Positions 35,840 to 64,000 of a DNA stretch of 64,000 nucleotides are shown piece after piece; the first letter of the stretch is position 1, and each line of letters begins with the position of its first letter. A model generated the notes under the pieces. It ran no database searches. It worked only from the letters and a program-made list of their open reading frames with translations, and was not told the origin of the DNA. Position numbers and translations under genes: made by a program. The stretch spans positions 1-64,000 of the forward strand of contig JBHLPW010000002.1 in assembly GCA_048939015.1 (NCBI GenBank). Reading direction: 5' to 3'. The stretch is from Promethearchaeota archaeon (lineage in GTDB: Archaea > Asgardarchaeota > Lokiarchaeia > Sigyniarchaeales > SOKP01).

Positions 35840-37900
35840 TTAAGCTGTAGGAGAAACCTTTTTTTGTAAACCTCTTAAAATTTCTTCATATAATTTCTCT
35901 ATAAAACCCTCAAAATCATTCTCAGTATACTTCACATTTAACATCTGCCATAATAAAACAGGTATGTCATCCTCATTATCATATACTGGAATAATTTTTA
36001 ACATTCCCTTTTTTCTCATCTGGAATGCAGCTTGCCATTCATCTTTAACAGCATTAGATTTTACTGAATTTTTCGAGCAGAAAAGTACGAATATATCCGT
36101 ATTTTTTAGAGTATCTTCCATGAATTCTACGATGTTTTGTTTACTGTCAGCTTGCCAATACGAAACCTTTTTTATTTCTGGATATACTTCTAATTCTTTC
36201 ACTATATCTGATATTCGAAAATGCTCAGCATCCAAAGTAGAATAACTGAGAAATACTCTCTGGTTTTTAATGTCCTCAAGTGGTGATACTGGTGCTATTT
36301 CTTTTGCTTTTTGATTAAAGGCGATTGATTTTGATGCTGAAAAATATTCCGCGTCAATTTCCCGATTTTTAATCATTTCAAGAATTATTTGTTCGATTTG
36401 ACTTTCATCTTTAACATCACTCTTTTCAACAATATCCATGAGTTCAAGGCGGGCAAATTTAGTTCCATAGTTCAAGATAGTCTTTTTGATCTTTTTCTTG
36501 ATATTAAACTGGAAGTCCTTACAATAATCAATTTTTTCTTCAATTTTCTCTAGTAATTCAGAAAGTTCATATTCTCTTGCTAATTCTTTTATTTCAACTA
36601 GTTTTAAAATTGCGTCATAAAATTTACTATTTTCAATTAGATTTTCAATTTTAGATAATTTCTTTTGTATCTTTTTATCCATTTTAGCTTGTTCTTTATC
36701 TCTCTTAATTTCTTCTTCCAGTGTTTTACACTGTTCTATTTTTTCTTCTGCTTCTTTCAAAATTTCTGATAATTCATATTCTTGTGCTATTTGTTTAACT
36801 TTTTCTAATTCTCGAAATGCATTTCTTAGCTTATTATCTTCAATTAAATCTTCAATTTCAGATAACTGAGTTTGAAGTTCGTCTTTAACTCTCTGTTCTT
36901 CTAATTCTTCTCTTTTTTCTATTTTAAGTGTATTAACTTCCTTTAATTTTACCTGCGCCTTTTTCATTAATTCTATCAATCCAAAATTTCTTGCAGATGC
37001 TATTATATTATTTAGATTTGCAATAGCTTCATCATATCTATTTCCTCTAATTAATTCATCAATTTCTGACATTTTTTGCTGAAGACCAGTTTTAATTTTT
37101 CGTAGTCCCTCTTCTCTTTCCTCTTTGGAAATTTCTTTAAAGATAATAACAAAATCCCTTACTCGAGCATTTATCTCATGATTAGTGATCATATCGTCAA
37201 CAATGGTTTCAAGAGTTTCACGTTTTATTCCTGTTTTTGATATAATTTCGAAAAAAGGCAGTTCCTTTGATTGAAATTGCATGGTTTTGATAAAATCAAT
37301 AGTTTTTCCTTCAACTAATTGTTTATCCTCCCAATCAGTACCAACTACTACTTCCTGTTTAATTTCGATAGGTTCAACTTCTAATACCTTCCGTTTCATA
37401 GGTTTAGCCTTTACTTCTTTTACTTTCGTCGATTTAACACGTCGAAATATTAATTCTCCTTCCTTACTTACAACAGCAACAACATTTGTTCCAATTAAAC
37501 CAATCCCAAAAATCAAACATAAATAGAATCCAGCTGTAAAGGTTATAGGATTTACAATTACTTGATTTAATGAGATTATAGAAGGATAGATCATTAAGCT
37601 AATTAAAATTAAAAGAAAACCAATTCCACCGAATAGGAGTGCCTTTTTTTTTCTTTCTGGGGTCAATAGTATAATTGAGATAATGGCAAGTGCAACACCT
37701 ACCCACCCCCCAAAAATTAAAGCAATATAACCCTCATATTCTGTCGTATAACCTTCCCATACAGGAGTTTCGGGTGGTGGTGGATATGGAGGGTGATGTT
37801 CTAAATAATATGGAAGAAATGCTGAAACCAATACAATTATAATTAAGATTCCATAAATTAATCTTATAAAATTGAATTTCTGTATTCTAATTTCTGTCAT
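35840..37900 (-). CDS. 4-TM membrane protein with winged-helix/PCI-like segments, three helical repeats and a C-terminal TIR domain
   Basis: N-terminal TM helices; repeats LSEIEDLIEDNKL.NA..EL..VK..A.EYEL.E.L..AEEKI..CK; TIR VFLSYS...FVLFCSKNSVKSNAVKDEW...IIPV. Confidence 0.82.
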   Translation of the reverse strand: MTEIRIQKFNFIRLIYGILIIIVLVSAFLPYYLEHHPPYPPPPETPVWEGYTTEYEGYIALIFGGWVGVALAIISIILLTPERKKKALLFGGIGFLLILISLMIYPSIISLNQVIVNPITFTAGFYLCLIFGIGLIGTNVVAVVSKEGELIFRRVKSTKVKEVKAKPMKRKVLEVEPIEIKQEVVVGTDWEDKQLVEGKTIDFIKTMQFQSKELPFFEIISKTGIKRETLETIVDDMITNHEINARVRDFVIIFKEISKEEREEGLRKIKTGLQQKMSEIDELIRGNRYDEAIANLNNIIASARNFGLIELMKKAQVKLKEVNTLKIEKREELEEQRVKDELQTQLSEIEDLIEDNKLRNAFRELEKVKQIAQEYELSEILKEAEEKIEQCKTLEEEIKRDKEQAKMDKKIQKKLSKIENLIENSKFYDAILKLVEIKELAREYELSELLEKIEEKIDYCKDFQFNIKKKIKKTILNYGTKFARLELMDIVEKSDVKDESQIEQIILEMIKNREIDAEYFSASKSIAFNQKAKEIAPVSPLEDIKNQRVFLSYSTLDAEHFRISDIVKELEVYPEIKKVSYWQADSKQNIVEFMEDTLKNTDIFVLFCSKNSVKSNAVKDEWQAAFQMRKKGMLKIIPVYDNEDDIPVLLWQMLNVKYTENDFEGFIEKLYEEILRGLQKKVSPTA

Positions 37901-38137
37901 TTAAATCTACTCTTCAATTATTTTATTTATTCGATTTTTAATAAAGATCTTTAATTTGTTTCTCGTTTAGTTCTATTAAGACGAGTTTAGATTTTATTTT
38001 TGGATTATACTACTTATATTAATTATATGATGACTTCATATTTATATCACTCTTGTGTATAAATTAAATTTCAATCAGAGTTAATATAAAGATACATAAA
38101 AAAAAAATAAAAGTAGTAAAAAGGCTAATATTAGAAT

Positions 38138-41100
38138 TTACTTTATTTTTTTCTTAAGTTGCCATGAAATTGATATTAAACTGAAAATCATTATTAAATA
38201 AAGCATATTAATATTATAAGTTGGTATAGCGGGAGATTCTGATTTCTTAATAGAAACCTCAGCATATCCTTCATGACCCAATGTATCAGTAGCATAAAAT
38301 CGTAGAGTGTATTCTCCAGGAGGTAATGCATTCCAATATTCTTGGATAATATCTCCAGTAAGGGTACAAGTTTCATTTATTTCTCCACCATCTAATGTAT
38401 ACCATATCTCATCTAAATTACCTTCATTTATAGTTAATTCAAAACTTGGAGCTCTATCTGTAAATGCTTGATTGTCTTCTGGAGAATTAATCGTGATCTC
38501 TGGTGAAAGTACATCTTTCCTCACAGTTACTTCTTCCCAATCAGAATTCCCTACCGAATCATTCGCATAAAATCTTATAGTAACAGTCCCATTGCCAAAA
38601 TTATCCCATTCCGTTTGGTCAATGTTTCCCATAGGTTCAGTAATAAGTAAGATTGTTACTCCTCCGTCCAAAGTATACCACATAATGTTCAAGTTTGGTT
38701 CTACAATAATTAAAGAAAATGAAGGAGTAGTGCTTCCGAAGAGATAATTTGAGATCGGTGTGGTGATTGTAATCTCTGGTGGAAGCACATCTTTTCTTAC
38801 TAACACATCTTCCCATCCAACATTACCAGCTGTATCATTCGCATAAAATCTAATAGTAACCGTTCCGTTTCCAAATTTACCCCATTCTATTTGGTCAATA
38901 TTACCCGTAGGTTCAGTAATAAGTACAATTGTTAACCCACCATCCAGGGTATACCACATAGTATCTAAATTAGGTTCAATAACTGTTATGTTAAAGTATG
39001 GTTCAGAACTTCCGAAAAGGTCATATAGAAGTGGTGAATTGATTGTAATGTTAGGATTGATAATATCAGCTATACAAGAAATTGTAAAATACCGAATTAA
39101 TGAAGATCTCATATATCCAACTGTATCATTTCCAAACACTTGAATGGTATGTAATCCATCTGAAGGCAATGGAATTGTAGTATTTCCTAAGATAGTCTTT
39201 ATTGTTTGAGAATCTAGTGAATATCCTTGCCAATCAAGAGCAATTTCACTCTCATAACTAAGTAATAGCCCTTCATTTAAATTATCTCCAATTTTATAAT
39301 TTGGATCCCAGGAATACCCTATCGCATCTACATATCTATTATGGCTATATGGCATTGACCAGCTTAACATATAGGTGGGTGCTATATTATTAATAAAGCT
39401 CAATGGTCCAATTTTAGTCCCATTAATATATAAATTCCATTGATATTGAGACAAACCCATATAACCTCCATTTGTAGCTTCAAAATCCATTCTAATATGA
39501 TACCACTTATTATTTATAACAGGAAGACCAGTATCATGCCAACCGGTATTATCTAGATATAAGAATTTATCTCCTACTCCGATTGCTACACAACAAATGT
39601 CTACAGTACCATTATGAAGTCTGATTTGAAATGAATGAGAAGAAGTGTAAGTAGTAATTTCATTTGCAGCCCAACATTCAAAAGTTCCATTACTCTGTGG
39701 TCCTGTAGTGAATTGCTGGAAAAAAATCGCCCCTCCTTCATAGCAATTGTATACCTTCTTATGACCATTAAATTCATCTATGACCTTCCAATTATCTTCA
39801 GAATCCAAAAAATTGAGAGGATCATTATTATTATGAGTATCTTCAAATCCATAGGTAGCTGGATAATAGCCACTCATCGGATCAGTATAGGTTTTGTTTT
39901 CAGGAGTGATTATATCTATAGGGAAATATTGAACGGTGAAATACCTAATCTGTGAATAATATTCTAATCCTAGTGAATCATTTCCAAATACTTGAACTGA
40001 ATGTACTCCATTCTCTGGTATCGGAATTGTTGTGTTTCCATAAATAGTTTTAGAGATGTGATCATCCAAAGAATACCCTTGCCAATCAAGAACGATTCTA
40101 TTTTTATAACTTAGCAATAAACCTTCATCCATATTAGCTCCAATTTGATAATTAGAATCCCATGAATACCCAATAGCATCAAAATACATATAATAATTCA
40201 TTTCTGTACTCGCAGTTGATATCCAAAATAGTGTTGCTTGAGGTTCATTATTTTCAAATTTAAAGGGTCCATATTTAGAGCCATTAATATGTATAAAACA
40301 GGAGTATTGATTCAATCCTTTATAATTCCCTGTTGAACATTCAAAATCAACACTTAAATGATACCAATTATTTGAAGAGGCAGGACACAATGAGTAATCC
40401 GTTCCATTAGTATATCGAAATTCATTATTCCTAATCTCAACAGCGAAAAGCGAATCAGTTACTACATCCAAATTCGCCAATCGAAAGGCTCCCGCCTGGG
40501 AAGCATCTGATATCCTCCACCAAAATTCTACTGTTCCATAAACTTGTACTGAGGAAAAGTTATTCCAAAGTTTTACAAGTCCAGCCCCAGCATTATTATT
40601 ATCATAGAGTTCTAAAACCTTTTGATGTCCATCAATTCCAGAAATGACTTGAACAGATGTATCTGAAGCTTCTAAAATTGTCCATCCTTCTGGATAAGTG
40701 CCATCCTCATCATTTTCAAATCCATGAGTTGCTAGGTAATATCCATCCATTGGTTGAGTATATGTTTGATTAACTGGAGTGACTAATTTAATCGAGGAAA
40801 CCTCAAAATGTTGTAGTCGTGATTGATATAACTCTCCTAATGAATCATTTCCAAATACCCGAATAAGATGTTCCCCATCTACTGGCATTTTTATAGTTGA
40901 ATTTCCTAGTATAGTTTTTATAGGCTGTAAATCAAGTGAAAATCCTTGCCAATCAAAGACAGTAGAGTTTGTAAAACTAAGTAATAACCCTTCGTTTAAA
41001 TTATCTCCAACATTATAGCCGGGATCCCATGAATAACCTATAGCGTCGACGTAATATGTAAGATTATTACTCGCACTAGAATAAATCTGAAAATTATGTA

Positions 41101-44100
41101 CATCAACTAGATCACCATCCCTAAAACCATAATCATCAGCTATCAAGGTATTATCGATATAGATATCGAATGTATCAGTCGAACAATTAAATTCAACACT
41201 AAAATGATACCATTTATCATTAATACAGGGAATAAGATCAGACCAAGATGTAGAATCATAACATTGAAACATATTTCCATCTGTTCTAATGACTACTGCT
41301 AGCTCACTGATAGATCCTCTTATTCTAATATATATATTCTCAGCTGAATCATTTGTACATATCCAAAATTCAACTACTCCATTTGATTTAGCGGAGGCAA
41401 AACTATCTAAAATATTAGCCGAAGGTGAAGAATTAGTGTCAATAAATTCCACAACTTTTTTATGATTTATGTATTCTTCAATTACTTGTACTGAAATGCC
41501 CTTCGCTACATCTGATACTAATCTTGAAGGTCTTGATCCAATTGAATCTTCTTCAAACCCAAAAGTTGCTGGATAATATCCACTCATAGGTTCATTGTAT
41601 ACTTTATCTTCAGGTGTTTTAATCTCTATTCCATAATCAACTTTAAAATATCTTAATTCAGATTCGTATAATATCCCTCGTGAATCCTCACCAAACAATT
41701 GAATTTGATGCACTCCTTCATCCAAATATGGAATGGTAGTATTTCCAAATATTGTTTTATTTATTTGTCCCTCTAATGAATAACCTAACCAAGTTAATTC
41801 GGTATTCTGAATAGTACTAATCAGTAATCCATCATTTGCATTATCGCCAATATTATAGTTTGAATCCCATGAATACCCAATAGCATCGGCATAGCATATA
41901 TCTCCATTAAAATGATAGAAATTTTGACCACTTGGAGTATTATTATATCGGAAACTAAAGGGTCCAAATTGTTCGTTATCTATAGCTACTTGCCAATACC
42001 ATTGTGATAAGCCCATATATCCTCCACTAGAGGTTTCAAAATCAATTCTCATATGATACCATGTGTTATCCAAAGTAGATTTTCCTAAATTATACATACC
42101 ACCAGTATGATTATTATAAACAAATTTTTCGTTATCTATTCCAATAGAAAAAGCTTGTCCTTGCCCAATTTGATATATCTGTGATGATATGGCATAAGAT
42201 GCATCTTCAATTGCCCACCAAAATTCAATAGTACCATGTTCTTCTGGTGTTTCAAATATATGATTTATCGAAATATCTCCAGGCCCAGGATCCTCCATTT
42301 TTAAAACCTTATTATGACCTTGAAATTCATCGATTATTTCACAAACACCATAAGTGTCGACCCACCCAAAAGGATCACTTGCATCTTGGTCATTCTCGAA
42401 TCCAAAAGTGGCAGGATAATATCCGTATGTTGGTGCAAAATAAGTTTTGTTTTCAGGTGTGCTAATATTAAAGAATGAACCTGTATCTACTGAAAAGTAC
42501 CTTAATTCAGAATTATAGATACTTCCTAACGTATCATTACCAATTACCTGAATATGGTGACTTCCATCTTTAGGAAAGGGGATTGAAGTATTTCCTAATA
42601 TTGGTATTATTGATTGACTGTCCAGAGAATATCCTTGCCAATCTAGATTAGTGCTATTCTCATAACTTAGTAGTAATCCTTCATTGAAATTATCACCAAC
42701 ATTATATCCTATATCCCATGAGTAACTTATTGCATCAGCCCAGAATTCAATAGCTTGAGTATTACCGGTATATAACTCTACTTCATAAGCATCTCCAGTG
42801 AAAGAATAATTAGCTATAGGTGATTCAAAATAGAGAGATCCGTCAGCTTGATAAATCCTAAATTTATATTTATTTGCATCTAAATCTTTATAGGTTCCAT
42901 CTCCAGAAAAATCTATACTCACTCGAAACCATTCATTTATAGAATTTAAACCTGTATTAATTTCGGTAGTACCATTTTTATAATACCACACATTATCATA
43001 GCTATATACATCAACTATATACTGATCGAGCGAATTTTTTATAAAAAAATGAGTGTGGTAATTATGACTATTATAGTATATCCAATATTCAACTGTTCCA
43101 CTAGTAATATTTTCATAGAATATTTGTGCAGGATATAGGTGAATACCACCTCCGGGATCGTTCAGATACAGAACATTATTGTGCCCATCTTTAGAATCAA
43201 CTACGTATACTCTTCCTTGATAAGAACCATATCCTTCTTCTGACCATGCATTTGGAAAATCCCCACTTTTATCATTCTCAAATCCATAGGTGGCAGGATA
43301 ATAGCCACTCATTGGACAAGTATAGATCTTATCTTCAGGTGTGATTAAATTTAAATGATGAACTGAAAAGCAACGAATATTAGATTGAAAATTAGTCCCT
43401 AATGAATTATTTCCATATACCCGAATTGAATGTGGTCCATCCTCTGGCAATGGAATCGTAGCATTCCCTAAAATTGTTCTATTAATCTGTCCATCTAAAG
43501 AATAGCCCATCCAATCAAGATTGGTATTATTTTCATAACTTAGTAATAATCCTTCATTGAAATTATCACCAACATTATATCCTATATCCCATGAGTAACT
43601 TATTGCATCAGCCCAGAATTCAATAGCTTGAGTATTACCGGTATATAACTCTACTTCATAAGCATCTCCAGTGAAAGAATAATTAGCTATAGGTGATTCA
43701 AAATAGAGAGATCCGTCAGCTTGATAAATCCTAAATTTATATTTATTTGCATCTAAATCTTTATAGGTTCCATCTCCAGAAAAATCTATACTCACTCGAA
43801 ACCATTCATTTATAGAATTTAAACCTGTATTAATTTCGGTAGTACCATTTTTATAATACCACACATTATCATAGCTATATACATCAACTATATACTGATC
43901 GAGCGAATTTTTTATAAAAAAATGAGTGTGGTAATTATGACTATTATAGTATATCCAATATTCAACTGTTCCACTAGTAATATTTTCATAGAATATTTGT
44001 GCAGGATATAGGTGAATACCACCTCCGGGATCGTTCAGATACAGAACATTATTGTGCCCATCTTTAGAATCAACTACGTATACTCTTCCTTGATAAGAAC

Positions 44101-45250: not shown

Positions 45251-45403
45251 ACAAATTTCACCAAAATTTATTTTGACTATTTAATATAATCTGAGATACA
45301 AAAATGTCAAGTTAGTATTTAAAAATTTGTCAAAAATTTAATAAATCAAATCTAAGATAACAATTTGACCAGACGTAATCAAAGAAAAAGAAAAAAGAGA
45401 ATT

Positions 45404-48400
45404 TTATTTTATTTTTTTCTTAAGTTGCCAAATCAAAGATATTGTTCCGATCATCATTATCAGAAAAAGTATAATATTATGATAACTAGATATAGCGGGA
45501 GATTCTGTCTTCTTAATAATAACCTCAGCATATCCTTCATGACCCAATGTATCAGTAGCATAAAATCTTAGAGTGTATTCTCCAGGAGGTAATGCATTCC
45601 AATATGATTGGTCAATTTGTCCAGAAAATGTACAAGTTTCATTGATTAATCCACCATCTAATGTGTACCATATAGTATCTAAATTACCTTCAATTATATC
45701 TAAATCAAAGTTTGGAGCTCTATCTGTGAATATTTGATTGTCTCCTGGGAGATTAATCGTGATCTCTGGTGAAAGTACATCTTTCCTCACAGTTACTTCC
45801 TCCCAATTAGAATTCCCTACTGTATCATTTGCATAAAACCTAATAGTAACCGTTCCGTTTCCAAACTTATCCCATTCCGTTTGGTCAATGTTTCCTATAA
45901 GTCCTATCATAGGTATAATTGTTACTCCTCCATCTAAAGTATACCACATAGTGTTCAAATTTGGTTCTAGAATAGTTGCATCAAATGAAGGAGCAGTACT
46001 TTCGAAGAGATAATTTGAGATCGGTGTAGTGATTGTAATCTCTGGTGGAAGCACATCTTTTCTCAATAATACTTCTTCCCATCCAACATTACCAGCCGTA
46101 TCATTTGCATAAAATCTAATTGTTACCGTTCCGTTTCCAAATTTACCCCATTCTATTTGGTCAATGTTTCCCGTGGGTTCAGTAATAAGAATAATTGTTA
46201 ACCCACCATCCAGGGTATACCACATAGTATCCAAATTAGGTTCAATAACTGTTATATTAAAGTATGGTTCAGTACTTCCGAAAAGGTCATATAGAAGTGG
46301 TGAATTGATGGTAATGTTAGGATCAACAATATCACCTGCGGTTGAAATTGTAAAATACCGAATTAATGAAGACCTCATATATCCCCAGGTATCATTTCCA
46401 AATACTTGAATAGTGTGTACTCCATCAGATGGCATAGGAATTGTTGTATTTCCCAGAATAGTTATAATTGGTTGAGAGTCGAGTGAATATCCTTGCCAAT
46501 CAAGAGCATAATTGCTTTGATAACTAAGAAGTAAGCTCTCATTTATATTATCTCCAACATTGTAATTTGGATCCCATGAAAATCCAACAGCGTCAATATA
46601 AAAACTATAATCTACATGATATATACTACTTGCTATACTAAAGTATTTCATCATTGTATTTGGATTCCGATAATCATAACCAGAAGAACCACCGTAGGTT
46701 GTTCCATTCACAGTAATCCAAAATTTATCTATAGTTGAATTGAATGTAATTGAGATATGATACCATATATTACTTAGAATTGGAGAGATGTTATAATAAG
46801 CGTCCGTTCTATAAGTAAGATATCCACTGTCAACACGTAGATATATTCCATCAGATGAATCTGTTTCAAAGAGGTTAATACTAGTTCGCATGCTTGAATT
46901 TTCAATTAAATAATAAAATTCGATTGTCCCATTATCTCTATTTGTCAAGTTAATTTTCATTTGAGTTTGTTCTGAATATACTGTGTCTGTTAGGTTGACT
47001 ACTTTTCTGTGATTATAATAACTATCTATTACCTCACACATACCTCCAAAAGCAACATCTTGATACCATCCATTTGGGAATGCTTTTTCTTCATCATTTT
47101 CAAATCCATACGTAGCATGGTAATATCCGCTCATAGGGTTAGTATATGTAATATTATAAGGCGTTATTATATTTATTGGGAAATATTGAACAGTAAAATG
47201 CCTAAGAGAGGAATAATAATTATTTCCAATAGAATCATTTCCAAATACTTGAATTTTATGTACTCCATTTGAAGGCATAACAAATGTAGTATTACCGAAA
47301 ATTGTTCTGTTAATTTGTCCATCTAAGGAATACCATTGCGAATCAATATTAGTACTATTTTCATAACCTAGTAACAACCCTTCATTAAGGTTATCTCCAA
47401 TATTATAATTAGGATCCCAGGAATAACCAACTGCATCAAAATAAGAATTGTATCCAAGTCCATAACTATAAGTATGCAAGTGAAATTCATCTAATTGTTC
47501 ATCAGCACCAAAAAGATATGGTCCATAACCAACTCCATTTATATATACGTAGAATTCATTTTCATTAAGGCCATGATATCCTCCTGTAGTATGTTCAAAA
47601 TCAATCCTAATATGATACCATGTATTTATCAATGGAGTTGCGGCTCCAATAATCGGAGTGTCACTACCATTATGATGTACATGCCATTCAGCAGGACTTC
47701 CACCAAACATCCTTACTCCAAACAAGATATTACCATTTCCCATCCCCGTGATCTGGCTTCTATCACCATCACTTCCTAAATCATCTTGTTGTACCCAAAC
47801 CTCAATTGTACCGTTATCTTTATTATTTATAAGATTATATATTCTTGTTGGATTTCCACTTCCACCTTGATTATCAAATAATCGAAGGACTTTTTTATGT
47901 CCATCTAGTTCTGAAATTACTTCCGCTTCGGGATTTTCAATTTGAATTACCCAATCTTTTGGATCAGCATTGTTTTCATCATTCTCAAATCCATAGGTAG
48001 CTGGAAAGTAACCACTCATCGGATTAGTATAGGTTTTATTTTCAGGAGTGAATATTATAAAAGGTGAGACTGTGAAATATCTAATCTCAGATTTATATAA
48101 AATCTCTCTGAAATCCATACCAAAGAGTTGAATTTTATTACGTTGTTTGCTATAATTACTAAAAGGGATTACTTTATTTCCGAATATTGTTCTATTAGAC
48201 TGTCCATTTAATGAATAACTAGTCCATTTTAGATCAGTGGTTTTAGTAAAATCCAATAATATACCTTCATCCTCGTTATCACCAATATTATAATTAGGAT
48301 CCCATGAATACCCGATTGCATCTATATAAGAGTAAAAATTCGAATCAGTACCAGTTGTGCCAAAATAAATTGTGTCCATGGCGCTTGGTGCTCCATAAAA

Positions 48401-52234: not shown

Positions 52235-52410
52235 ATAGTTTCACCCTAATCTATCTAAATTTATAATTTAGAAGTCTGTGAATTACAAATATGAAGAATT
52301 CGTATTTAAAAGTTTTGTTAGGATTACGGTAGTATTACAAACAAAAAGAGAGATTTCAATAGCTTTAAAATAAAAAGATTTGAAAAAGAAGGGAATTAAA
52401 AAATTATGGT

Positions 52411-53991: not shown

Positions 53992-54097
53992 ATTTGATTC
54001 ACTTGATATTTCTATATTAATTTTTAATACCGATATAATAATTAAAGTTTTTGTATTGAAAATGTCCTAATCTAAGTAAGAAAATAAGAAAAAAAAA

Positions 54098-57000
54098 TTA
54101 TCTCAATATTTCCTCATAGAGTTTCTGGATAAATTCATCAAAGTTATCTTTTGTAAATTTAACATTCAATAAAGGCATTAATAAGAATGGAATTAAGTCC
54201 TCTTGTTCATATACGGGAACTATTTTCATCAAACCTTTTTTCCTCATTTGAAAAGCTGCCTGCCACTCATCTTCCACGGCTTTAGATTTTATAGAATTTT
54301 CTGAACAAAAGAATACAAATACTTTACTTAGTCTTAAAGTTCTTTCCATATAAGTTACTATACTCTCACCGCTATCTGCTTCCCAAAAGAATACTTTATC
54401 TATTTTTGGAAATGCTTCTAGTCGTTTGGCAATTTCATCAATATTGAAATGCTCCGAATCTAGAGTGGAGTAGCTTAAAAATACATTTAAGCCTCGAGTA
54501 AAGTATGTTCTTATAGCATTTATATATAGTGGATAGTGAGCGAAATCTTCTGTAGTTACATTTCCTTCATAAAGGTCTCTTTTGAATTGTCTTATTCTTT
54601 CGAAATTTTCTACAATAACATTTTTATCGGGAAAGGTTTCTGAAAAAACCTGCTCCCAATTGTTCTTATCAGTAATTATCGAATTTAATTGAATGAAATC
54701 AAGAGACTCCATTTCATCGGTAGTTGAGGGAAGCTTCTTAGGTGTTAATAATTTAGTTTTACTTTCAATTGTAGTCCTTATATATTCAGGGATTCCTTCT
54801 TGCCACCAAAGAGATTTATAGACACCTTTAAGTTTTGCTTTAGCAAAACTACGGATATTCGTTTCAAAAATTTCAACATCATTTTTGGCAGTCTCAATTT
54901 GTTTTTTGAGCGCTGCTCGTCTTTTCATTCTGGGTCTTATAACTAGGAAAGTGGAAATGGCACCTACAACACCAACAGAAATAACAATAATTGCGATTAT
55001 CACTCCGGGATCTATCCCCGCCGGTAATTCCCCTGAAATATACAAAATAGTTTCATCTGTATTATCGACTTCATTATCATCTCGAAAGCCTCCCGATTTT
55101 GAGCTATATGTTTCATTAATTTCATTATTAGGATCCAATATAATTTCCACTAACACGTTTCCACCTTGGTATAGTTCAGCTCCCTGTATGAGATCATTAT
55201 ATACTTCATCCACATCCAAGTCTATGGGGTTATCAGTGTTGTTAAATAAAATTACATTCAAATGTTCGATCCATATTATAATTATAACATTTTTGGCATC
55301 CCATATTCCATTATTTGTGATTGTGATATTTACTACAAAGGGTTTACCTATATCTGCTTCTATCGGATCAAACTTTAAGACTGCTAGATTAGGCATAGGA
55401 TACCAATAACCTAGCAATGGTTTTGTACCTAAGCCTGTTTCAATACCGTCTAAAAAGGTGTCTCCATCCGTATCATTATTATGAGGATCTGTCCCATTAG
55501 TAAATTCATGATAATTTATGAGGAAATCAGTATCAACATCAGTGATATTATCAGCATCGTTCAATGGATTTAAAATATTAAATACTTCCCATCCGTCAGG
55601 CATTCTATCTGAATCTGTATCAGAATTAAGAGGATTTGTAGAGTTTTTCCACTCCCAAAAATCAAATAACTCATCAGAATCAGAGTCAGGGTTTGTTACA
55701 TTTGTACGATATCCGTCTAACCCTAAAAGATATTCCTCAAGATTAATAAATTTATCTCCATCGGTATCTACGTCAAATCGATAAAATAATGGAAACTTAT
55801 CTTGGTTATAAGCCGTTCCAAAAATTGTCTGAGGATTATCTCCAATTGCATTATAATCTAAATCTAAACCACTATAATCATCCCAAAAATTCCCCACTGA
55901 TCCATCATCCCATATGTTTTTCTTCCCATTATCTTGAGCTTGTAAATTATTCCCTATAAAATTGTTATAGTAGATGCTATTATTCTCACAATATTCATTC
56001 TGGATAAATAAACCAAGTTCACTATTCCTTATTGTATTTCTAAGAAATGAGCTATTAGAACAGCTACTTAATATTATCCCATATTGACTATTTCCATCTA
56101 GATTATTATCTGTAAAGTTATTTAGCGAACACAACTGAGCTAATATTCCGTTAACATTATTAGATATTTGATTATTTATAAATCGGGAATAAGTACTGTA
56201 AACAATTTGGAATCCAGCTCCAAAAAATCCACTCTCCATTAATATTTTGGTACTCTCTGTTAACGTATTTCCTTCATATGTATTATTAAAGCCGAAAACA
56301 TCTTCTATACCAATTAAATTTTGTGAAGCAGAACAATTCATAATTTTACAGTTATTACTAAAGCCAAGATTAATGCCATAAGCGGTATTCATTGATGCAT
56401 TAATATTGTAGAGTGAAATATTATCGCAATATAGGATATTAAGAGCTAAAGTACACTTAGTAAGATTCAAATTTGAAATTATTGAATCAGTACACCCAGA
56501 TAAAATTATTTGCCCGGCATTCGCAAAATTAATCGGTTTCAGATTATTTATATGATAATAATAATAAATAGGCTTCCCATTTACTAAATTTGATGTATCA
56601 ATAAAGAGGATAGGTTCAAAAAACGTTGGATGAATATTTATCCCACAATTAGTCATTAAATTTCTTGATAGGTTATTGTTATCACATGATCCTGGTGATG
56701 CTGAAAGGATGTATACTCCTCCGAGAAAGTTATCATATAAATAGTTATTAATTATGTTGTTTTCATAACTATCTTCGATTTCTATTCCCATTCCATTCTG
56801 ACTAATATTATTATTAGATATAGTTATATTGAAGCAATCGACTAAGCTTAAAGCTACTCCAAGTCCGAAACTAATTGCAGGATCGATGAACTTATTATAA
56901 TTTTTAGTAATATTATTATTTTCGATTGAAGAGTTACTGTTTTGAATTGATATAATACCCAAATATGTGTTTTGTGTGAAAGTATTATCCCTTATTGTAT

Positions 57001-57793
57001 CGTTCATGCAATAAAACAAGGATAAAGCAGTCGTAGTATAAGATATTTCTAGGTCAAAAATTTGGGTTCCACTGCAGTTAATAAGGATTAATTGTCCTGG
57101 TTGAGGAAAATTACCTGGTACCAAATTTTTCTCATTAAATTTATAATAAAGAACCTTTCCATTAATTAAATTGGTTTCATCAATTGAGTGGGAGATTAAA
57201 TCCTCAACTAATGGAAGTCCACCATTAAATGGAAAATTTAATCCACAATTTGTGAAATTATTTTCAGTTAGAGTGATATATCTGCAATCTTGGATTGTTA
57301 TACCAGCGTGACTGTTATTATCAAAAATATTTCTAAAAATCGTATTATTATTAGACGATTGAAGTCCAACTCCTTTCCCTGCTTCATGATAATAATGGTT
57401 AATATTATTATTAAATGAATTATTGAATATAAAATTAAAGTTACTTCCCAATAATGTTATTCCAGCACCACCATTTCTGCAAACGAAATTTTGTGTAATA
57501 TTATTATACTCACACACATCTAAGACTATTCCTGTATTTTCATTGTATGACAAATTATTACGATGTATTAAAGTGAAGAAACTACTTAATGAATAAATTC
57601 CTGCATCATTGTACATCATGTTATTATTTTTAATTGTTGCATTGTTTACTTCGATTAGTTCGATTCCAAAATCATTAAAGTTTGCTGTACTCTTTTCAAT
57701 AGTGATATTTGTACAATATGATAAGGAAAGCCCATTTTTGGTACAATTATTGGTAATTATATTCGAAATAATATAATTTCTACCACCAAGCAC
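54098..57793 (-). CDS. C-terminal part of a single-pass receptor: beta-helix (NosD-like) repeats, DxDxD Ca-binding repeats, CARDB-like Ig, TM, Swt1-like HEPN, TIR
   Basis: N..N..GI repeats; DTDGD/DSDSD units; PNLAV...NNG...LDPNNEINE; TM VIIAIIVISVGVVGAISTFLVI; WWQEGIP...LDFIQL..II...NWEQVF; TIR VFLSYS...AVEDEW. Confidence 0.8.
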   Translation of the reverse strand: MLGGRNYIISNIITNNCTKNGLSLSYCTNITIEKSTANFNDFGIELIEVNNATIKNNNMMYNDAGIYSLSSFFTLIHRNNLSYNENTGIVLDVCEYNNITQNFVCRNGGAGITLLGSNFNFIFNNSFNNNINHYYHEAGKGVGLQSSNNNTIFRNIFDNNSHAGITIQDCRYITLTENNFTNCGLNFPFNGGLPLVEDLISHSIDETNLINGKVLYYKFNEKNLVPGNFPQPGQLILINCSGTQIFDLEISYTTTALSLFYCMNDTIRDNTFTQNTYLGIISIQNSNSSIENNNITKNYNKFIDPAISFGLGVALSLVDCFNITISNNNISQNGMGIEIEDSYENNIINNYLYDNFLGGVYILSASPGSCDNNNLSRNLMTNCGINIHPTFFEPILFIDTSNLVNGKPIYYYYHINNLKPINFANAGQIILSGCTDSIISNLNLTKCTLALNILYCDNISLYNINASMNTAYGINLGFSNNCKIMNCSASQNLIGIEDVFGFNNTYEGNTLTESTKILMESGFFGAGFQIVYSTYSRFINNQISNNVNGILAQLCSLNNFTDNNLDGNSQYGIILSSCSNSSFLRNTIRNSELGLFIQNEYCENNSIYYNNFIGNNLQAQDNGKKNIWDDGSVGNFWDDYSGLDLDYNAIGDNPQTIFGTAYNQDKFPLFYRFDVDTDGDKFINLEEYLLGLDGYRTNVTNPDSDSDELFDFWEWKNSTNPLNSDTDSDRMPDGWEVFNILNPLNDADNITDVDTDFLINYHEFTNGTDPHNNDTDGDTFLDGIETGLGTKPLLGYWYPMPNLAVLKFDPIEADIGKPFVVNITITNNGIWDAKNVIIIIWIEHLNVILFNNTDNPIDLDVDEVYNDLIQGAELYQGGNVLVEIILDPNNEINETYSSKSGGFRDDNEVDNTDETILYISGELPAGIDPGVIIAIIVISVGVVGAISTFLVIRPRMKRRAALKKQIETAKNDVEIFETNIRSFAKAKLKGVYKSLWWQEGIPEYIRTTIESKTKLLTPKKLPSTTDEMESLDFIQLNSIITDKNNWEQVFSETFPDKNVIVENFERIRQFKRDLYEGNVTTEDFAHYPLYINAIRTYFTRGLNVFLSYSTLDSEHFNIDEIAKRLEAFPKIDKVFFWEADSGESIVTYMERTLRLSKVFVFFCSENSIKSKAVEDEWQAAFQMRKKGLMKIVPVYEQEDLIPFLLMPLLNVKFTKDNFDEFIQKLYEEILR

Positions 57794-57850
57794 GGAGAGA
57801 CCAGTTGAAGTATGGGACAGATTAAAGTTGGTAATTACTGAATTATTACA

Positions 57851-58825
57851 CTAAATTAAAATAATCTGACCTGGAGATCCATAACTTACAAAATCAGGTG
57901 TAGCTAAACTCGTTTTATTAAAGTAAAAATAAACCGCTCTGTTGTTAACTTGATTACTTTCATCAATTTTGTTTGAGGACATTTCTGTGATTGAGCCATC
58001 AAGACCAATACCACATCTTTTCATTTCATTACCATTGATTGTATTATTAATTGTATATCTAATCAGTACTCCATATTGATCATTACGATAAGCTAGATTA
58101 TTGGAGATCGTATTATTTTGACCTCCTTCTACAGAAATCCCACTTCCTCCATTATCATGAACATTATTTAGTAAAATTTTATTAAAATCACAATTAGATA
58201 CAATCCTTATTCCATCATTATTGTTATCACTAGCTTCATTTCCTATAATTGTATTATTTATACATAAACTTTCGAGAAATACTCCCGTAAAAATATTATC
58301 ATTTACAGTATTTGCCGATAAAGTGTTATTTTCACTGTTGCTTAAATAGATCCCATAAGCATCATTCATCGAACAATCATTATTGATTATTGTACCATTA
58401 CATGTAGAAACTAATTTTATTCCTGCTTCTTTAGAATATCTGTCTCCATCTCCAGAATTAAATAATGTACAGTTTTCAATGATAAAAGGCACAATCGAAT
58501 TATTAATCAGAATACAACTCTCTGTTTCCTGTCCATCAATTACAACATTTTTAATAACAAATGGATCACTCCAAGTTCCTGATCCATTACACCATTCATT
58601 AGTTGCAGCGGTAATCGACCAATTTAAAGAGGGATTACTCTCATCAATGTGTATTTTATTTGAAAGAACCCAGTATCGAGCGAGTTTTAATTTGGAATCA
58701 TACTTTTCGGTTATAATTTTATTTGTACTAAATGATTTCATCCAGAGATCGCTACATAAAAAGGATGAGATTAAAAGGGTACTTAATAATAAGGATGAAA
58801 TTAAATCTCTACATTTTATTTTCAC
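57851..58825 (-). CDS. N-terminal part of the same receptor (signal peptide + beta-helix), ending at an in-frame TAG
   Basis: Signal peptide, WCNGSGTWSDPFVI cap and beta-helix repeats; same reading frame as 54098-57793 with only one stop between them. Confidence 0.8.
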   Translation of the reverse strand: MKIKCRDLISSLLLSTLLISSFLCSDLWMKSFSTNKIITEKYDSKLKLARYWVLSNKIHIDESNPSLNWSITAATNEWCNGSGTWSDPFVIKNVVIDGQETESCILINNSIVPFIIENCTLFNSGDGDRYSKEAGIKLVSTCNGTIINNDCSMNDAYGIYLSNSENNTLSANTVNDNIFTGVFLESLCINNTIIGNEASDNNNDGIRIVSNCDFNKILLNNVHDNGGSGISVEGGQNNTISNNLAYRNDQYGVLIRYTINNTINGNEMKRCGIGLDGSITEMSSNKIDESNQVNNRAVYFYFNKTSLATPDFVSYGSPGQIILI

Positions 58826-59022
58826 AGAAAATCAAACTCCTTAAAATTATTTGGATTAAATAATAATTTACTTTTATGTATAATAATATTTTTACTCAAT
58901 GTTTTAAACTTTATTCTGAGATCGGAGATTTAGAAAGTCTACAAATTAATGTTCTACTCTTATCAGAATGTAATGGGAGTTATAAAAGAAAACAGAAGAT
59001 GATTTTATTTCATGTAATAAAT

Positions 59023-62000
59023 TCAACGTAAAATCTCTTCATAGAGCCTTTGGATAAATCCATCTAAATCATCTTCAGTATATCTTACATTTAAAAATGG
59101 CATTAAAAGAATGGGAACATCTTCTTCATTTTCATATACAGGAATAATTTTAACAGCTCCCTTCTTATTTAATTGATAAGCTGCTTGCCATTCTCCTTCA
59201 ACAGATTTCGAATCTTTTGAGTGTTTAGTACAAAATAAGACGAAAGTGTTGGAAATACTTAAAGTCTTTTCCATAAATTCAACAATATTTTGACCACTAT
59301 CTTTAATATAATAATAGACTTTGTCAATTTCCGGATATTTCTCAAGGCCTTCTACGATTTTATTGATGTGGAAATGATCCAAATCCAATGAGGAATAACT
59401 TATAAAAATGTTGAATTTCCTTGGTTTTACAACAGTGGGAACAACTTTTGGTCCTTCTTCAACTTTTGATGCAGTTTTAGAGGCTTGTTCCATTTCTTTT
59501 TCTATTGTAGGAGTTGGTTTCTTTTCTTCCTTTAACTTCTCTTTCACTGCAGGTTTAGCAACAGGTTCTCTTTTAATTTCTCTGAGAATTCCTGACTCAA
59601 TATCCTTACATTGTTCAATTTTTTCATTCGCATTGTTAAAAATATCAAAAAACTCATACGTTTCTGCTGTATCTTGAATTTTTCCTAAATTTTTATATGC
59701 TAATTTAATATTTCTTTCTTTTATGAGATAATCAACAAAATCTAATTTTCCTTCTAGTTTTGTTCTCATCTTTTCTTTCTTTTTTTCACTTATCTCTTTT
59801 TTCTTCAATCCTGATACTGTCATTCTCTTCTTTATCAATATCGCAGCACCAGTCACTCCCACAGCAACTATCGCAATAACCAATACAATTATAAAAATTT
59901 CAGTGGGAAAACCAGAAGGACTAGGGATATTATTTCCTGTATTACCCACACTATTATGAATAATGATATCAGTTCCATTATCCGATAAATTATTCCCATT
60001 AATATTATTATAATTAGATTGATCGAGATATATGCCTACACCATTATTCGAAATTACATTATCAGTGATTTTATTATTATGACTGTTTATCAGATAAATA
60101 CCATTCTCAACATTCAAATTTATTGTATCTGAATTATTGAATATATTTATATGGTTACTATTTATCAATTTAATACCATTTAAATCATTAGAATTAATAG
60201 TGCTACTTGTAATATTTACATATTGGCAGGAATCTAAGAGAATTCCATTTCCATTGTTAAAAGAACAATTAAGATATATTAATACTCCATATGATAGATT
60301 AATTAATTTAACTCCTGCGTCGTTTTGATCATTACCAGAACTATAAAAGGAGCAATTATTTATTGTAAAGGAAATATTAGAATTACTAATTGTTATGCAA
60401 CTACCTGTACTTTGACCATCAATTTCTAATGATTCAATAATGAATGGATCAGTCTTGGTTCCAGAGCCAGAACACCATCCCTGTTTAACTGCTTCCATCC
60501 ATGTATAATCTCCACTACCACTATCGTCAATTATAAGCGGATTTAATGGCCAATAGTTATAATACTTTTCAATCGAAACTGATTGATATCCTATATTTCC
60601 AGCTGTGTCATTAGCATAAAAAATGATAGTTATTGTCTCACGTCCTTTTTTATTCCATTCTTCTTCATCTATGATCCCTGTACTAGTAGTCGTTTTATTT
60701 GTTATACCATCATCAATCGTATACCATATATAATCGGGGTTTAATTCTGTAATTGTTATGTTGAATGAAGGTGAAATTGTATCAAATCTATCTCCTGGAT
60801 GTGGCGAATTAATACTAATCATTGGAACATGAGTATCTTTTAATATATTCACTTCTGCAAATCCCATATTAGCAAATGTGTCATTTGCATAAAAAGTAAT
60901 ATTTACTGAACCATCTGGAAAAATATCCCATATAGTTTGATTTATAGTGCCACTCCAGATCGTAATATTCATATTAGCTGAAGAATATGATTTGTTGCTT
61001 ACAACGTACCAAGCATTGTGAAAATTACTATCAATAATTGATATATTATAATTAGGGGCTTTATAGCTAAAAGCTTGGTTATAAATTGGATTATGGATTG
61101 TAATTAGAGGTCCTAAGGTATCTTTTCTAACATTAATTTCGTGCGCTGTTTCCACTCCCCGCGAGTCATTTACATAAAAACGGATCAAAACAGTTCCATT
61201 TGCCATACTATCCCAAGCTGAAAAGTTAATAGTACCATTAGTTGTAAAGGTGTAGATAGACGTATCGTTGCCTAAAGTATACCACATTGTGTGACTGATG
61301 CCTTCCTCAATAATAATAGTATAATTTGGAGGAGTCTGTTGAAATATTTCATTCTCAGTAGGAGAAATTACGGAAAAAACAATAGGATCCCACCAAATTG
61401 GAAGTTTATCTTGACTTGGGGCTGTGCCTCCAATATTTAAATAAGGTACGTCTCCAATTCCATCATCATCCACATCCTTGCCCGAATAATCAGACCAATA
61501 ATTCCCTATTGTACTCGTATTCCATTTATTCTTGTAGCCATCATCATATGCGTTTAAAGCATTAGTATAAAAATAATTTTGAGATATTAAATTATATGAA
61601 GCATCACTTTGTAGATATAGTCCACGCTGTGTATTATTTATTAATACATTATTAGTCAAGTTGTTAGAGTTCCCATATTCGAGTTCGATTCCCCTAAAAT
61701 TTTCAATAAGTACATTACTTTTAATAGTATTGTTATTAATCAAAGTTCCCTGAAAAAATATACCCTGATTCGTATTATTCTTTATAATATTCTCAAAAAT
61801 ACAATTAAAACGAATGTCATTTCCCGAACAGTAAATTCCCTGATAGTTATTACTTATTTTATTATTTGAAATGTTATTATTATAGCAATTATACAACAGT
61901 ATGATTCCATAATTATTACTATTACTAATTGTATTATTTGAAATATTATTATTATTACAGCTCTCCAAAAAACCATTCAATTCAATGCAACTTCCTTTAT

Positions 62001-63999
62001 GAAATTGGACATAATTTAGCGAGACTACAGAATTATTGGATCTATGTATAGAAATTCCATCATAATTGTATTTAATTGTATTATTATAAATAAAACTTAA
62101 ATCACAATCTCCTAAATATAAACCAGTATTGGTATTATTATATATCATCTGTTCATAGATGTAGCTATACTGACAGTAATAAAATTCGACTCCACTAGGA
62201 TTATTACTCACTGTATTATTAGAAAAGGTAGTATTGATGCAAAACCTAATAGTAATTGAACCAAAAGGATTAAATACAATAGTGTTCTTCTGAATCGAAG
62301 TATGATTAGAATTCTCAATAAAAACTCCATAATATTGGTTGTTTGTAATCATATTTTCAATTAGACTAATATTAAGACCACTATCAATCGAAATACCTAG
62401 ATAATTATTGTCACTTATGGTACTATTTTCTAAAACACCATAAGTGACGTTATTAAAAATAATTCCAGAACCAGAATCGCTGGCATTCAAAAATTTACAA
62501 TCTTGAATGAGAAATTGAACTATAGAATTACTTATTTTAATACAATTTGAAATATTATTACCATTTATGATTAAATTCTTCAAGAGATAAGGATCTGTTA
62601 ATGTACCAGAACCAGAACACCATAATAAATCTGAACTTGCTTTAGACCATGTAAAATTCCCACTTCCTGTTTCATCAATAATAATAGGTGAAATAGTATA
62701 ATTGCAAACATTCCATGTAAAATTATTATTTAATCCATTATTATCTTCAAAACACTTTATACTATTTTCATTTATGATATTTCCATAGATTTCAGTATTA
62801 TTACTCGATTCCAGATAAATCCCATATTCGAAATTATTATTTATAAAAGTAGTTTTTATAGTATTATTTTCACAATTTTCTAACAATATTCCAATTCCAT
62901 TGTTAAACGAACAATTACTATTAATAATCGCTACGTTGCTAACATTCACCAATTTAATTCCAGCGGATCCAGCAATAGAACTGCTATTATAAATTTTGCA
63001 ATTATTAAAAATGATATATTTATTTGAATTTTTAATTTCAATACAACTGTTTAAATCTTGGCCATTAAAAATTAAACCATTAAAAATATATGGATCATTA
63101 GAAGTACCAGAGCCTTCTATAAGAGTTCTCCACCATGGTTGATTTCTTGCCCAAGTCCAATTATGCGCTCCAACACCAGATGCCACTCCATCGATTTCAA
63201 TAGGTTCACGATAAATTGAATGGATATCATTAAACCAAATTTTACCCATAAAATTCGGCTTATATCTGAAGTCATTACGAATGGCATAGTACATATGAGG
63301 TGTGTATATATATACGTATGGATAAAGATCCTCCACAATATATTTTTGCATATTATTGTATAACGACTTTCTTATAGAAAAATCAGTTTCATTTAGAGCT
63401 TGTTCCATTAAACCCTCGAGAACTGTATCGTTAACTTGACCGCGATTATATATTGAAGAATTTGAATAAAGATATTCTAGTAATACACTTGGATCATTGT
63501 AAGTTATACCTTCATAATAATAACCAAACAATTCAAGCGTTCCTACGTTATAGTACAATCTCATATAAAAATCAAACCATGAGAGAGGGTCATCGATAAC
63601 TTCAATACCAATTAAATTCAACGAATAGCTCCACGAGTTATAAATATTGGCAAATATTGGAGAACTATCTAAATAAGAATAATCTAAACTTGCAAAAATC
63701 GTAGAAGTCCAAAGACCTTCATCAGTTCCAGGATAATCGGTATCCCATCCAACACCAAAACCCATACTTTGCATAGTTTCTCTAGCTTTTGTAATATTGC
63801 AAGTAGCTATCTGATTAGAATAATTCGAATATAGCATTCCATAAGGTATTGGAGATCTTAATCTATTCGCATGCCCTTCGGCAATTTCATTAATTATATA
63901 AGAATAATTTGTTGCGTAAGAAATAGCTTTTCTCCATGTTTTATCTAGAAGTGTGTTGTTCATTCCTAAATAAATGAAATCTGAAGAGTTCTCTGGACC
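59023..63999 (-). CDS. Single-pass receptor, 5' end outside window: family-5 ABC solute(peptide)-binding domain, beta-helix blocks, Ig-like stalk, TM, helical module, TIR
   Basis: Frame is open to the window edge (GPENSSDFIYLGMNN); WRKAISYA..., SPIP, RKSLYNNMQKYIVEDLYP (SBP_bac_5); three GSGTxxDPY/F-capped beta-helices; TM IFIIVLVIAIVAVGVTGAAILI; TIR IFISYS...SVEGEW. Confidence 0.83.
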   Translation of the reverse strand, partial: GPENSSDFIYLGMNNTLLDKTWRKAISYATNYSYIINEIAEGHANRLRSPIPYGMLYSNYSNQIATCNITKARETMQSMGFGVGWDTDYPGTDEGLWTSTIFASLDYSYLDSSPIFANIYNSWSYSLNLIGIEVIDDPLSWFDFYMRLYYNVGTLELFGYYYEGITYNDPSVLLEYLYSNSSIYNRGQVNDTVLEGLMEQALNETDFSIRKSLYNNMQKYIVEDLYPYVYIYTPHMYYAIRNDFRYKPNFMGKIWFNDIHSIYREPIEIDGVASGVGAHNWTWARNQPWWRTLIEGSGTSNDPYIFNGLIFNGQDLNSCIEIKNSNKYIIFNNCKIYNSSSIAGSAGIKLVNVSNVAIINSNCSFNNGIGILLENCENNTIKTTFINNNFEYGIYLESSNNTEIYGNIINENSIKCFEDNNGLNNNFTWNVCNYTISPIIIDETGSGNFTWSKASSDLLWCSGSGTLTDPYLLKNLIINGNNISNCIKISNSIVQFLIQDCKFLNASDSGSGIIFNNVTYGVLENSTISDNNYLGISIDSGLNISLIENMITNNQYYGVFIENSNHTSIQKNTIVFNPFGSITIRFCINTTFSNNTVSNNPSGVEFYYCQYSYIYEQMIYNNTNTGLYLGDCDLSFIYNNTIKYNYDGISIHRSNNSVVSLNYVQFHKGSCIELNGFLESCNNNNISNNTISNSNNYGIILLYNCYNNNISNNKISNNYQGIYCSGNDIRFNCIFENIIKNNTNQGIFFQGTLINNNTIKSNVLIENFRGIELEYGNSNNLTNNVLINNTQRGLYLQSDASYNLISQNYFYTNALNAYDDGYKNKWNTSTIGNYWSDYSGKDVDDDGIGDVPYLNIGGTAPSQDKLPIWWDPIVFSVISPTENEIFQQTPPNYTIIIEEGISHTMWYTLGNDTSIYTFTTNGTINFSAWDSMANGTVLIRFYVNDSRGVETAHEINVRKDTLGPLITIHNPIYNQAFSYKAPNYNISIIDSNFHNAWYVVSNKSYSSANMNITIWSGTINQTIWDIFPDGSVNITFYANDTFANMGFAEVNILKDTHVPMISINSPHPGDRFDTISPSFNITITELNPDYIWYTIDDGITNKTTTSTGIIDEEEWNKKGRETITIIFYANDTAGNIGYQSVSIEKYYNYWPLNPLIIDDSGSGDYTWMEAVKQGWCSGSGTKTDPFIIESLEIDGQSTGSCITISNSNISFTINNCSFYSSGNDQNDAGVKLINLSYGVLIYLNCSFNNGNGILLDSCQYVNITSSTINSNDLNGIKLINSNHINIFNNSDTINLNVENGIYLINSHNNKITDNVISNNGVGIYLDQSNYNNINGNNLSDNGTDIIIHNSVGNTGNNIPSPSGFPTEIFIIVLVIAIVAVGVTGAAILIKKRMTVSGLKKKEISEKKKEKMRTKLEGKLDFVDYLIKERNIKLAYKNLGKIQDTAETYEFFDIFNNANEKIEQCKDIESGILREIKREPVAKPAVKEKLKEEKKPTPTIEKEMEQASKTASKVEEGPKVVPTVVKPRKFNIFISYSSLDLDHFHINKIVEGLEKYPEIDKVYYYIKDSGQNIVEFMEKTLSISNTFVLFCTKHSKDSKSVEGEWQAAYQLNKKGAVKIIPVYENEEDVPILLMPFLNVRYTEDDLDGFIQRLYEEILR

Positions 64000-64000
64000 A

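Follow-up and report, generated by a model that had tools for sequence, protein, structure and literature searches.

Predicted membrane TIR receptors beside a candidate SLOG reader in a Lokiarchaeia gene array

To our knowledge, the prokaryotic TIR signalling characterised so far begins within the cell. Bacterial receptor-like systems whose extracellular sensors vary have been described with other cytoplasmic domains. In type I Thoeris, TIR-to-SLOG signalling is established, and the accessible part of the text of the same paper names neither a RelA/SpoT effector nor a membrane TIR sensor among its 29 putative Thoeris types (bioRxiv 10.64898/2025.12.03.692087). A survey of E. coli TIR systems remarks that features of Toll-like receptors (TLRs) such as membrane anchoring seem to be partly missing in bacteria (PMC11350192), and some animal TLR TIRs, including that of TLR4, have been reported to make cyclic ADP-ribose (cADPR; bioRxiv 10.64898/2026.04.20.719644). 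Here, we describe a gene array of a Promethearchaeota archaeon (class Lokiarchaeia; assembly GCA_048939015.1) that encodes three TIR proteins, A, B, and C, next to a protein with RelA/SpoT-like, TPR, SLOG, and longin-like parts. It was analyzed in a stretch of 64,000 nucleotides, hereafter the window, which comprises bases 1–64000 of the 152.7-kb contig JBHLPW010000002.1. The sequences suggest that what is new here is TIR-to-SLOG signalling with a surface-receptor input and a new reader, and that it is neither a member of the TLR family nor a canonical Thoeris type.

The array consists of seven co-oriented minus-strand genes, running from contig position 65586 down to 32706 with intergenic gaps of 106–563 bp. 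We tentatively propose, at somewhat less than an even chance, that Lokiarchaeia evolved, independently of animals, diversifying surface receptors that would turn ligands into a TIR-made, NAD-derived messenger, to be read by a TRPM2-type SLOG protein with alarmone-synthetase-like and longin domains.

The TIR domains A (35873..36262), B (54101..54490), and C (59026..59418) share 56–64% pairwise identity and match Pfam TIR_2 (PF13676) with E-values of 1e-14, 8e-16, and 3e-12, respectively (48–59 bits against a curated cut-off of 28). These matches bear out an earlier note on this DNA, which had reported three paralogous TIRs at these places, with a consensus that stands as given and a retained Glu. 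This Glu sits in a [DG]EWQ motif (codons 36038–36040 in A, 54266–54268 in B, and 59191–59193 in C), is invariant in helix C of 26 out of 26 aligned domains, is kept in 161 of 167 domains, and aligns with the catalytic Glu of the NADase Cat1. A structure model of TIR B (pLDDT, the predicted local distance difference test score, 91.6) gave 78 fold matches at E ≤ 0.001, the top rows being all TIR and the nearest folds those of the SPARTA TIR (TM-score 0.79) and AbTir (0.78). The clade thus has the appearance of a TIR_2-type, enzymatic-type TIR with predicted NADase activity. A homotetramer prediction for the TIR scored 0.00 and gave no answer, and is counted neither way.

Genes B (54098..58825, 1575 codons) and C (59023..64000, starting beyond the window at contig 65586; 2187 aa) are predicted to encode single-pass type-I proteins with a cytoplasmic C-terminal TIR, and gene A (35840..37900, 686 aa) a protein with four transmembrane (TM) helices. 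Topology was judged from hydropathy, the positive-inside rule, and sequon composition, not with a dedicated predictor. The single TM helices of B (about 54943–55003) and C (about 59832–59892) are each followed by K/R clusters, as is the last TM helix in 68 of 74 TM-bearing close relatives. N-x-S/T sequons are enriched N-terminal of the TM helix (44 against 29 ± 5 in shuffled sequences, and 71 against 42 ± 6), and the tails hold 0–1. These features place the TIRs, by prediction, on the cytoplasmic side, in agreement with the receptor-like topology that had been suggested for this locus.

Gene B encodes, in this order, a signal-like N-terminus, NosD beta-helices, Ca-binding-like and Ig-like modules, the TM helix, a Swt1-HEPN-like linker, and the TIR; in gene C a signal peptide, a beta-helix, an SBP_bac_5 domain, further beta-helices, and Ig-like modules precede the TM helix, a helical linker, and the TIR. 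The description of both as single-pass beta-helix proteins holds for the TM helix and the beta-helices, but both genes turn out to be longer, gene C including the SBP_bac_5 domain and gene B being interrupted by a stop codon (see below). Likewise, the four N-terminal TM helices ascribed to gene A are present, and in addition about 400 aa of helical and winged-helix linker separate them from the TIR, the order being TM helices, winged helix/helical linker, PCI-like winged helix, TIR. Structural look-alikes of its 4-TM domain are only unnamed or DUF4293/Trp_oprn_chp-like. A role as non-catalytic adaptor in the receptor/adaptor system put forward earlier sits poorly with a protein in which the Glu is retained and the linker is that of the receptors.

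Among gene B orthologs, most ectodomain windows are 14–56% identical, with one short Ca-binding-like stretch at 55–72%, whereas the TIR is 83–92% identical; the adjacent 526-aa core gene, our standard for comparison of this divergence, is 78–81% identical. Across the clade, ectodomains comprise NosD beta-helices, SBP_bac_5, Peripla_BP_6, FN3, PKD, and FG-GAP and SBBP propellers, and a quick tree joins near-identical TIRs to different ectodomains. As far as sequence can tell, the sensor part of these proteins is variable and the output part constant.

Outside the array, the clade accounts for four more single-pass receptors in the source genome, which also has one more distant, small multi-TM TIR. 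Among 135 genomes of the family, 68 match the TIR profile at 1e-28 and 23 at 1e-60, with 0–11 clade copies per genome. In 301 genomes across the phylum, matches are confined to the class Lokiarchaeia (relatives of the source genome are labelled Promethearchaeota/Lokiarchaeia), save for one 5.8-kb contig labelled Hodarchaeota, the sole occurrence in ~220 sampled Asgard genomes outside the class. Two genes of this contig are ~50% identical to proteins of the source genome, and misbinning or transfer is likely. The TIR clade is thus found almost only in Lokiarchaeia. NCBI labels are unreliable for such range claims, because contigs labelled "Odinarchaeota" and "Hermodarchaeota" (L012, P0236) carry genes 80% identical to the source genus or lie in a same-genus genome. 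A search of 1.8 billion representatives yielded 268 matches at 1e-30. Of the 104 strongest, 74 have a TM helix ahead of the TIR and many of the others are fragments, while the weaker matches are mostly soluble. The phage records and IMG/VR contigs searched gave no match. A metagenomic contig of 4 kb encodes a virus-like protein that contains a TIR of this clade (L177:2095-3936, P0168), possibly from an Asgard virus with a captured host TIR; the upstream gene has a weak, below-cut-off zincin-type (ATLF) match.

In the quick tree, which has 79 open branches and contains no animal TIR sequences, the membrane forms make up a 107-row group (support 89 in the Shimodaira–Hasegawa-like approximate likelihood ratio test, SH-aLRT), nested (SH-aLRT 85–89) among soluble leucine-rich repeat (LRR)-, Ras-, SLOG-, and winged-helix-TIRs. 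TIRs A, B, and C fall into three different subclades with orthologs elsewhere and are therefore old paralogs. Related Lokiarchaeia TIRs are fused to WD40 arrays or Ras-family GTPases (L060:4498-8172, L063:2145-5189, P0163). The source genome also encodes soluble LRR proteins with a divergent TIR-like C-terminus (L007:7055-8731, L008:7087-9489, L003:12288-14441) and has an LRR-PCI gene between two TIR receptors, an arrangement that recurs in G023, G024, and G020.

Could these proteins be true homologs, or even ancestors, of the animal Toll/interleukin-1 (IL-1) receptors, passed on via the Asgard host of eukaryogenesis? The topology is the same, and the TIRs of Hydra TRR-2, MyD88, and TLR2 are among the fold matches (TM-score 0.70–0.74). 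Yet fold matches from animals and bacteria alike are 13–20% identical and the sequence match to TLR2 has an E-value of 0.07, so that the clade resembles animal TIRs no more than it does bacterial TIRs. TLR/IL-1 receptor TIRs are marked by box 2 (RDxxPG) and box 3 (FW; PMC7075850); both are absent from the aligned clade TIRs, in which the BB loop reads WExDSKxNIVEFM and the last helix is without FW. An extracellular LRR solenoid or IL-1R-type Ig was not found, the window ectodomains being NosD/beta-helix, SBP_bac_5, and prokaryotic Ig-like, and the LRR-TIR relatives are without a TM helix. Together with the nesting of the membrane forms in soluble Lokiarchaeia TIRs and the near-absence of the clade from other Asgard classes, this makes common descent very improbable. 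The missing boxes and the narrow distribution indicate that the likeness is convergent, an analogy and not a homology, as had been cautioned.

Are the fusions themselves real? Assembly or binning artefacts, also raised earlier as an alternative, might be suspected in a metagenome-assembled genome (4.86 Mb, 95% complete, 6.5% contamination) with repetitive ectodomains. In the source run, however, ectodomain, TM helix, and TIR are spanned by single unitigs that show 0 differences, and unitigs from two further runs, one of them of another study, bridge the TM-TIR stretch of gene B. The same fusions recur in dozens of independent assemblies, and the gene order too is repeated in many independent genomes. 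The fusions are therefore real, and an artefact is next to inconceivable. Sediment metagenomes contain the window DNA; no RNA dataset is listed among the sequencing sets that do.

Gene B is intact in its relatives. The open reading frame 54098–57793 represents only its 3′ part; the full gene starts at 58825 and is cut by one in-frame TAG (codon 325, 57851..57853), a position occupied by a sense codon in four orthologs. Read-through as pyrrolysine was considered and rejected: no PylS scored above cut-off and TAG ends 345 long open reading frames, while no CUA tRNA is among the 13 tRNAs found in the genome (introns not searched). Since there is no pyrrolysine system and the source unitig carries the TAG, gene B is a nonsense-broken copy in this strain. 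The Swt1-HEPN linker was considered as an RNase, but is probably inactive because RxxxxH is missing in five orthologs. The locus is thus not self-contained: the genome carries four further receptors of the same clade outside it, and of the three TIR genes in the window one is broken.

The last gene of the array (32706..35276, minus strand, 856 aa) encodes our candidate reader or effector, with Pfam domains RelA_SpoT (34634..35264), TPR, and LSDAT_prok, a SLOG domain of the LSDAT/TRPM type (33188..33788) with conserved Gly-rich loops and a putative ADP-ribose-type ligand site, and with a tail that resembles the longin-type receptor tails. The structure model (pLDDT 85.8) matches the small alarmone synthetase RelP (Z 15.8) and the N-terminal region of TRPM2 (Z 16.1, 190 residues, 2.7 Å); LOG-family proteins score similarly to TRPM2 against the SLOG domain (top Z 18.2). 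ThsA is not among the best 50 structural matches listed, which does not exclude a likeness to ThsA. A SLOG profile against PDB sequences gave nothing useful, and Foldseek of the whole reader was dominated by TPR matches. The synthetase domain keeps D77, E156, and Q158, and this copy carries R160C and H165Y; we assume the usual roles of the synthetase motifs Syn1–Syn4, including the Arg and His of Syn4. The protein may already be listed in the SLOG classification of Burroughs et al. 2015 (NAR).

What ties this protein to the TIRs is gene linkage. Full-length orthologs occur in 15 of the 135 family genomes, from three genera, and all 15 are among the 23 genomes with the close TIR clade. In 12 of the 15 a TIR gene lies within 3 kb, and in the other three the reader is near contig ends; for comparison, about 2% of genes in the source genome have any TIR within 6 kb. 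Recurrence carries more weight than these counts. It is not always the same TIR paralog that stands beside the reader, and in G045 the two remain linked despite an inversion and new flanks. In six genomes, a sister subfamily of 669 aa, without longin, directly follows a TPR-TIR whose TIR lineage is unrelated, and in a seventh it follows a DUF4062-AAA-TPR gene; more distant homologs adjoin TIR_2 or DUF4062 genes (we take DUF4062 to be TIR-like). One metagenomic protein fuses a reader-type SLOG (44% identity) directly to this TIR clade, and reader fragments are left in G073 and G076, both without the close TIR clade. This RelA/SLOG-like neighbour, singled out by the earlier note, is thus the best candidate for a reader or effector, and more than a bystander.

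Several side observations concern these genes. Among the loci L129 (G140:C47), L133, and L134, the reader and the adjacent TIR genes are both frameshifted or truncated in G140, and TIR remnants lie at the locus in G099 and G083, either by co-decay or by sequencing error. A distant RelA-TPR-SLOG-longin homolog (L094:3217-11415) stands head to head with a cluster of TIR_2, ThiF (E1), JAB, and UFC1-like (E2) genes, an arrangement that, judged by gene content, links TIR to a ubiquitin-like system.

How could receptors and reader work together? That ligand-clustered TIRs make an ADP-ribose-type messenger which is read by the TRPM2-like SLOG, in a Thoeris-like way, we give an even chance. The sequences show a soluble archaeal TIR lineage that became joined to shuffled, glycosylated surface modules. 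The outside ligand might be a small solute, bound by the solute-binding domains, or a polymer, cell, or virion, bound by the beta-helix, Ig, or propeller domains. Such a ligand, or membrane stress in the case of the 4-TM form, would bring the cytoplasmic TIRs together, and from what is known of the family, their assembly would switch on NAD+ cleavage at the Glu to give an ADP-ribose-type messenger. This messenger would bind the SLOG domain of the reader next door, as their gene linkage suggests, and the output could pass through the altered synthetase domain or the longin tail. Overall, this would resemble Thoeris, the part of ThsB being played by a membrane receptor.

A number of observations weigh against this proposal. 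A conserved Glu neither proves activity nor tells the product (PMC7075850). Five receptor-bearing genomes of 92–99% completeness are without any SLOG of the reader family, and around two reader homologs of 55% identity the 3–10 kb of available sequence contain no TIR. The 15 reader genomes are kin and often share the 526-aa landmark gene, so that part of the linkage is inherited synteny, and we give no P value for it. A 563-bp gap ahead of the reader suggests a promoter of its own. The synthetase is the least conserved reader part (59% against 72% for the SLOG) and its Syn3 Tyr/His are lost across the reader clade, being kept in distant homologs, which makes an output by guanosine tetraphosphate (ppGpp) doubtful. 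Finally, receptors, TPR proteins, and the SLOG protein may end in either TIR or longin, one taking the place of the other at the C-terminus, something that a docking role would explain as well.

In such a role the TIR would chiefly serve for docking or assembly, as one in a set of exchangeable tails on a general-purpose surface repertoire for adhesion and for sensing nutrients or partners; signals would pass by contact between proteins, and any NADase activity would be secondary. The source genome indeed encodes ~93 single-pass surface proteins, with 7 longin-type, 8 zinc-finger (zinc ribbon/finger), 4 chemoreceptor (MCP)-like, and 6 TIR tails, other tails being helix-turn-helix domains or a few residues, and ~40 of its non-TIR proteins share ectodomain modules with the TIR receptors. 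The swaps of TIR and longin occur on the same protein bodies, and receptors occur without the reader. A near-invariant Glu and FxSYS motif over >150 diverged domains speak against mere docking, as does the fact that the SLOG reader has repeatedly come to stand beside TIR-fold lineages, three of them, that are unrelated, and we regard this explanation as rather unlikely. Besides the array, the window contains a TPR protein (19695–21698, plus strand) whose body is 33% identical over 648 aa to that of the TPR-TIR proteins of other genomes and whose tail is longin-like, so that TIR and longin trade places on a common scaffold.

Alternatively, the receptors could be self-sufficient effectors that, when clustered on a virion or predator, drain NAD+ and so cause dormancy or death, as do SPARTA, Cat1, and TIR-STING, the RelA-SLOG gene being a modulator or an inherited neighbour. 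The closest folds and sequences are those of NAD-depleting effectors, patchy presence, the swings in copy number, and broken copies are as in conflict systems, and some genomes have receptors but no reader. However, solute-binding ectodomains suit graded sensing better than suicide, the window has metabolic neighbours and no defence island, and among the 135 genomes the reader ortholog was never seen without the TIR clade; we therefore hold self-sufficient effectors to be unlikely. PADLOC returned only weak ThsB matches (E 5e-4 to 7e-4) and weak candidate-system matches, and no ThsA.

If receptors do signal to the reader, their role may be defence, or it may be environmental or partner sensing; patchiness, expansion, and broken copies fit conflict. 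Because their modules are common to non-TIR surface proteins, the ectodomains alone do not imply immunity, and the proposed function in immunity or prey recognition is weakened by solute-binding ectodomains, which point as much to environmental sensing, and by surroundings free of a defence island.

Three further genes lie between the TIR genes, all on the minus strand. Giant surface proteins 1 (38138..45250, 2370 aa) and 2 (45404..52234, 2276 aa) consist of ~290-aa repeats and have a C-terminal anchor. Giant 1 has six to seven repeats and an Ig-like stalk; giant 2 is its paralog, and one of its repeats matches Sialidase-like_CBM. No solved relative of the repeat was found. The earlier note had rightly placed two giants in the array, but had not mentioned the 526-aa coiled-coil gene (52411..53991), and its inclusion of the giants in the system is not borne out: both end five residues after the anchor, with no cytoplasmic domain, and they are at this locus in some relatives only, so that any system role is by association. 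DNA blocks shared by the giants are 83–87% identical over ~1.2 kb, and within one of the two proteins a stretch is duplicated almost exactly, which suggests recent recombination among repeats. The 526-aa gene is an unannotated, single-copy genus core gene and locus landmark (67–94% identical), with feature look-alikes in Bathyarchaeota and Thorarchaeota; as it is present in 23 of 24 genus genomes whatever their TIR content, we rejected it as a system component. Beyond gene C by ~25 kb, outside the window, lie three tandem Rab/Ras-like small GTPase genes (contig C21 90486–92351, L001).

In the literature searched, subscription journals not being covered, Asgard membrane TIR receptors are nowhere described, which agrees with the earlier view of an undescribed family. 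If true, receptor-to-reader signalling of this kind would form a class of prokaryotic transmembrane signalling of its own, separate from two-component, chemoreceptor, and cyclase receptors, and would parallel Toll signalling by convergence, the Toll-like layout having arisen a second time, in Asgard archaea. With this family one can test whether the clustering of receptors can drive TIR catalysis across a membrane, a question reopened by the TLR4 cADPR report; the 130-aa TIRs and the 200-aa SLOG should be easy to express. In addition, the catalogue of ectodomains hints at what uncultured syntrophs sense outside the cell.

How, finally, does the locus compare with described systems? As in Thoeris types I (ThsB TIR with ThsA SIR2-SLOG) and III (several TIRs with a SLOG effector), TIRs with the catalytic Glu stand beside a SLOG protein. 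In contrast to Thoeris, the TIRs here are predicted membrane receptors with large ectodomains and not small cytosolic sensors, the SLOG domain is of the LSDAT/TRPM type on a RelA/SpoT-TPR-longin protein instead of a SIR2 protein, there is no tight operon, receptors are also scattered, and the reader is not obligate. The NAD-depleting effectors SPARTA TIR-APAZ, Cat1, and AbTir provide the best structural and sequence matches and have the same catalytic Glu, but they are proteins of the cytosol that nucleic acids or nucleotides activate, whereas here the input domain is predicted to lie outside the cell. The reader matches the N-terminal SLOG region of TRPM2 (MHR1/2) and RelP/RelQ, but has no channel, and its synthetase motifs deviate at Syn3 and, in the copy described here, also at the Arg and His of Syn4. 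With the Toll, TLR, and IL-1 receptors, Hydra TRR-2 included, the family shares a type-I single-pass layout, a repeat/solenoid or Ig ectodomain, a C-terminal TIR, and an expansion of paralogs. It differs from TLRs and IL-1 receptors in that no MyD88/death-domain adaptor is seen here, in its linkers of 100–300 aa (HEPN-like, helical, or winged helix), in ectodomains of beta-helix, solute-binding, propeller, and PKD type instead of LRR, and in an origin that appears to lie inside an archaeal TIR lineage.

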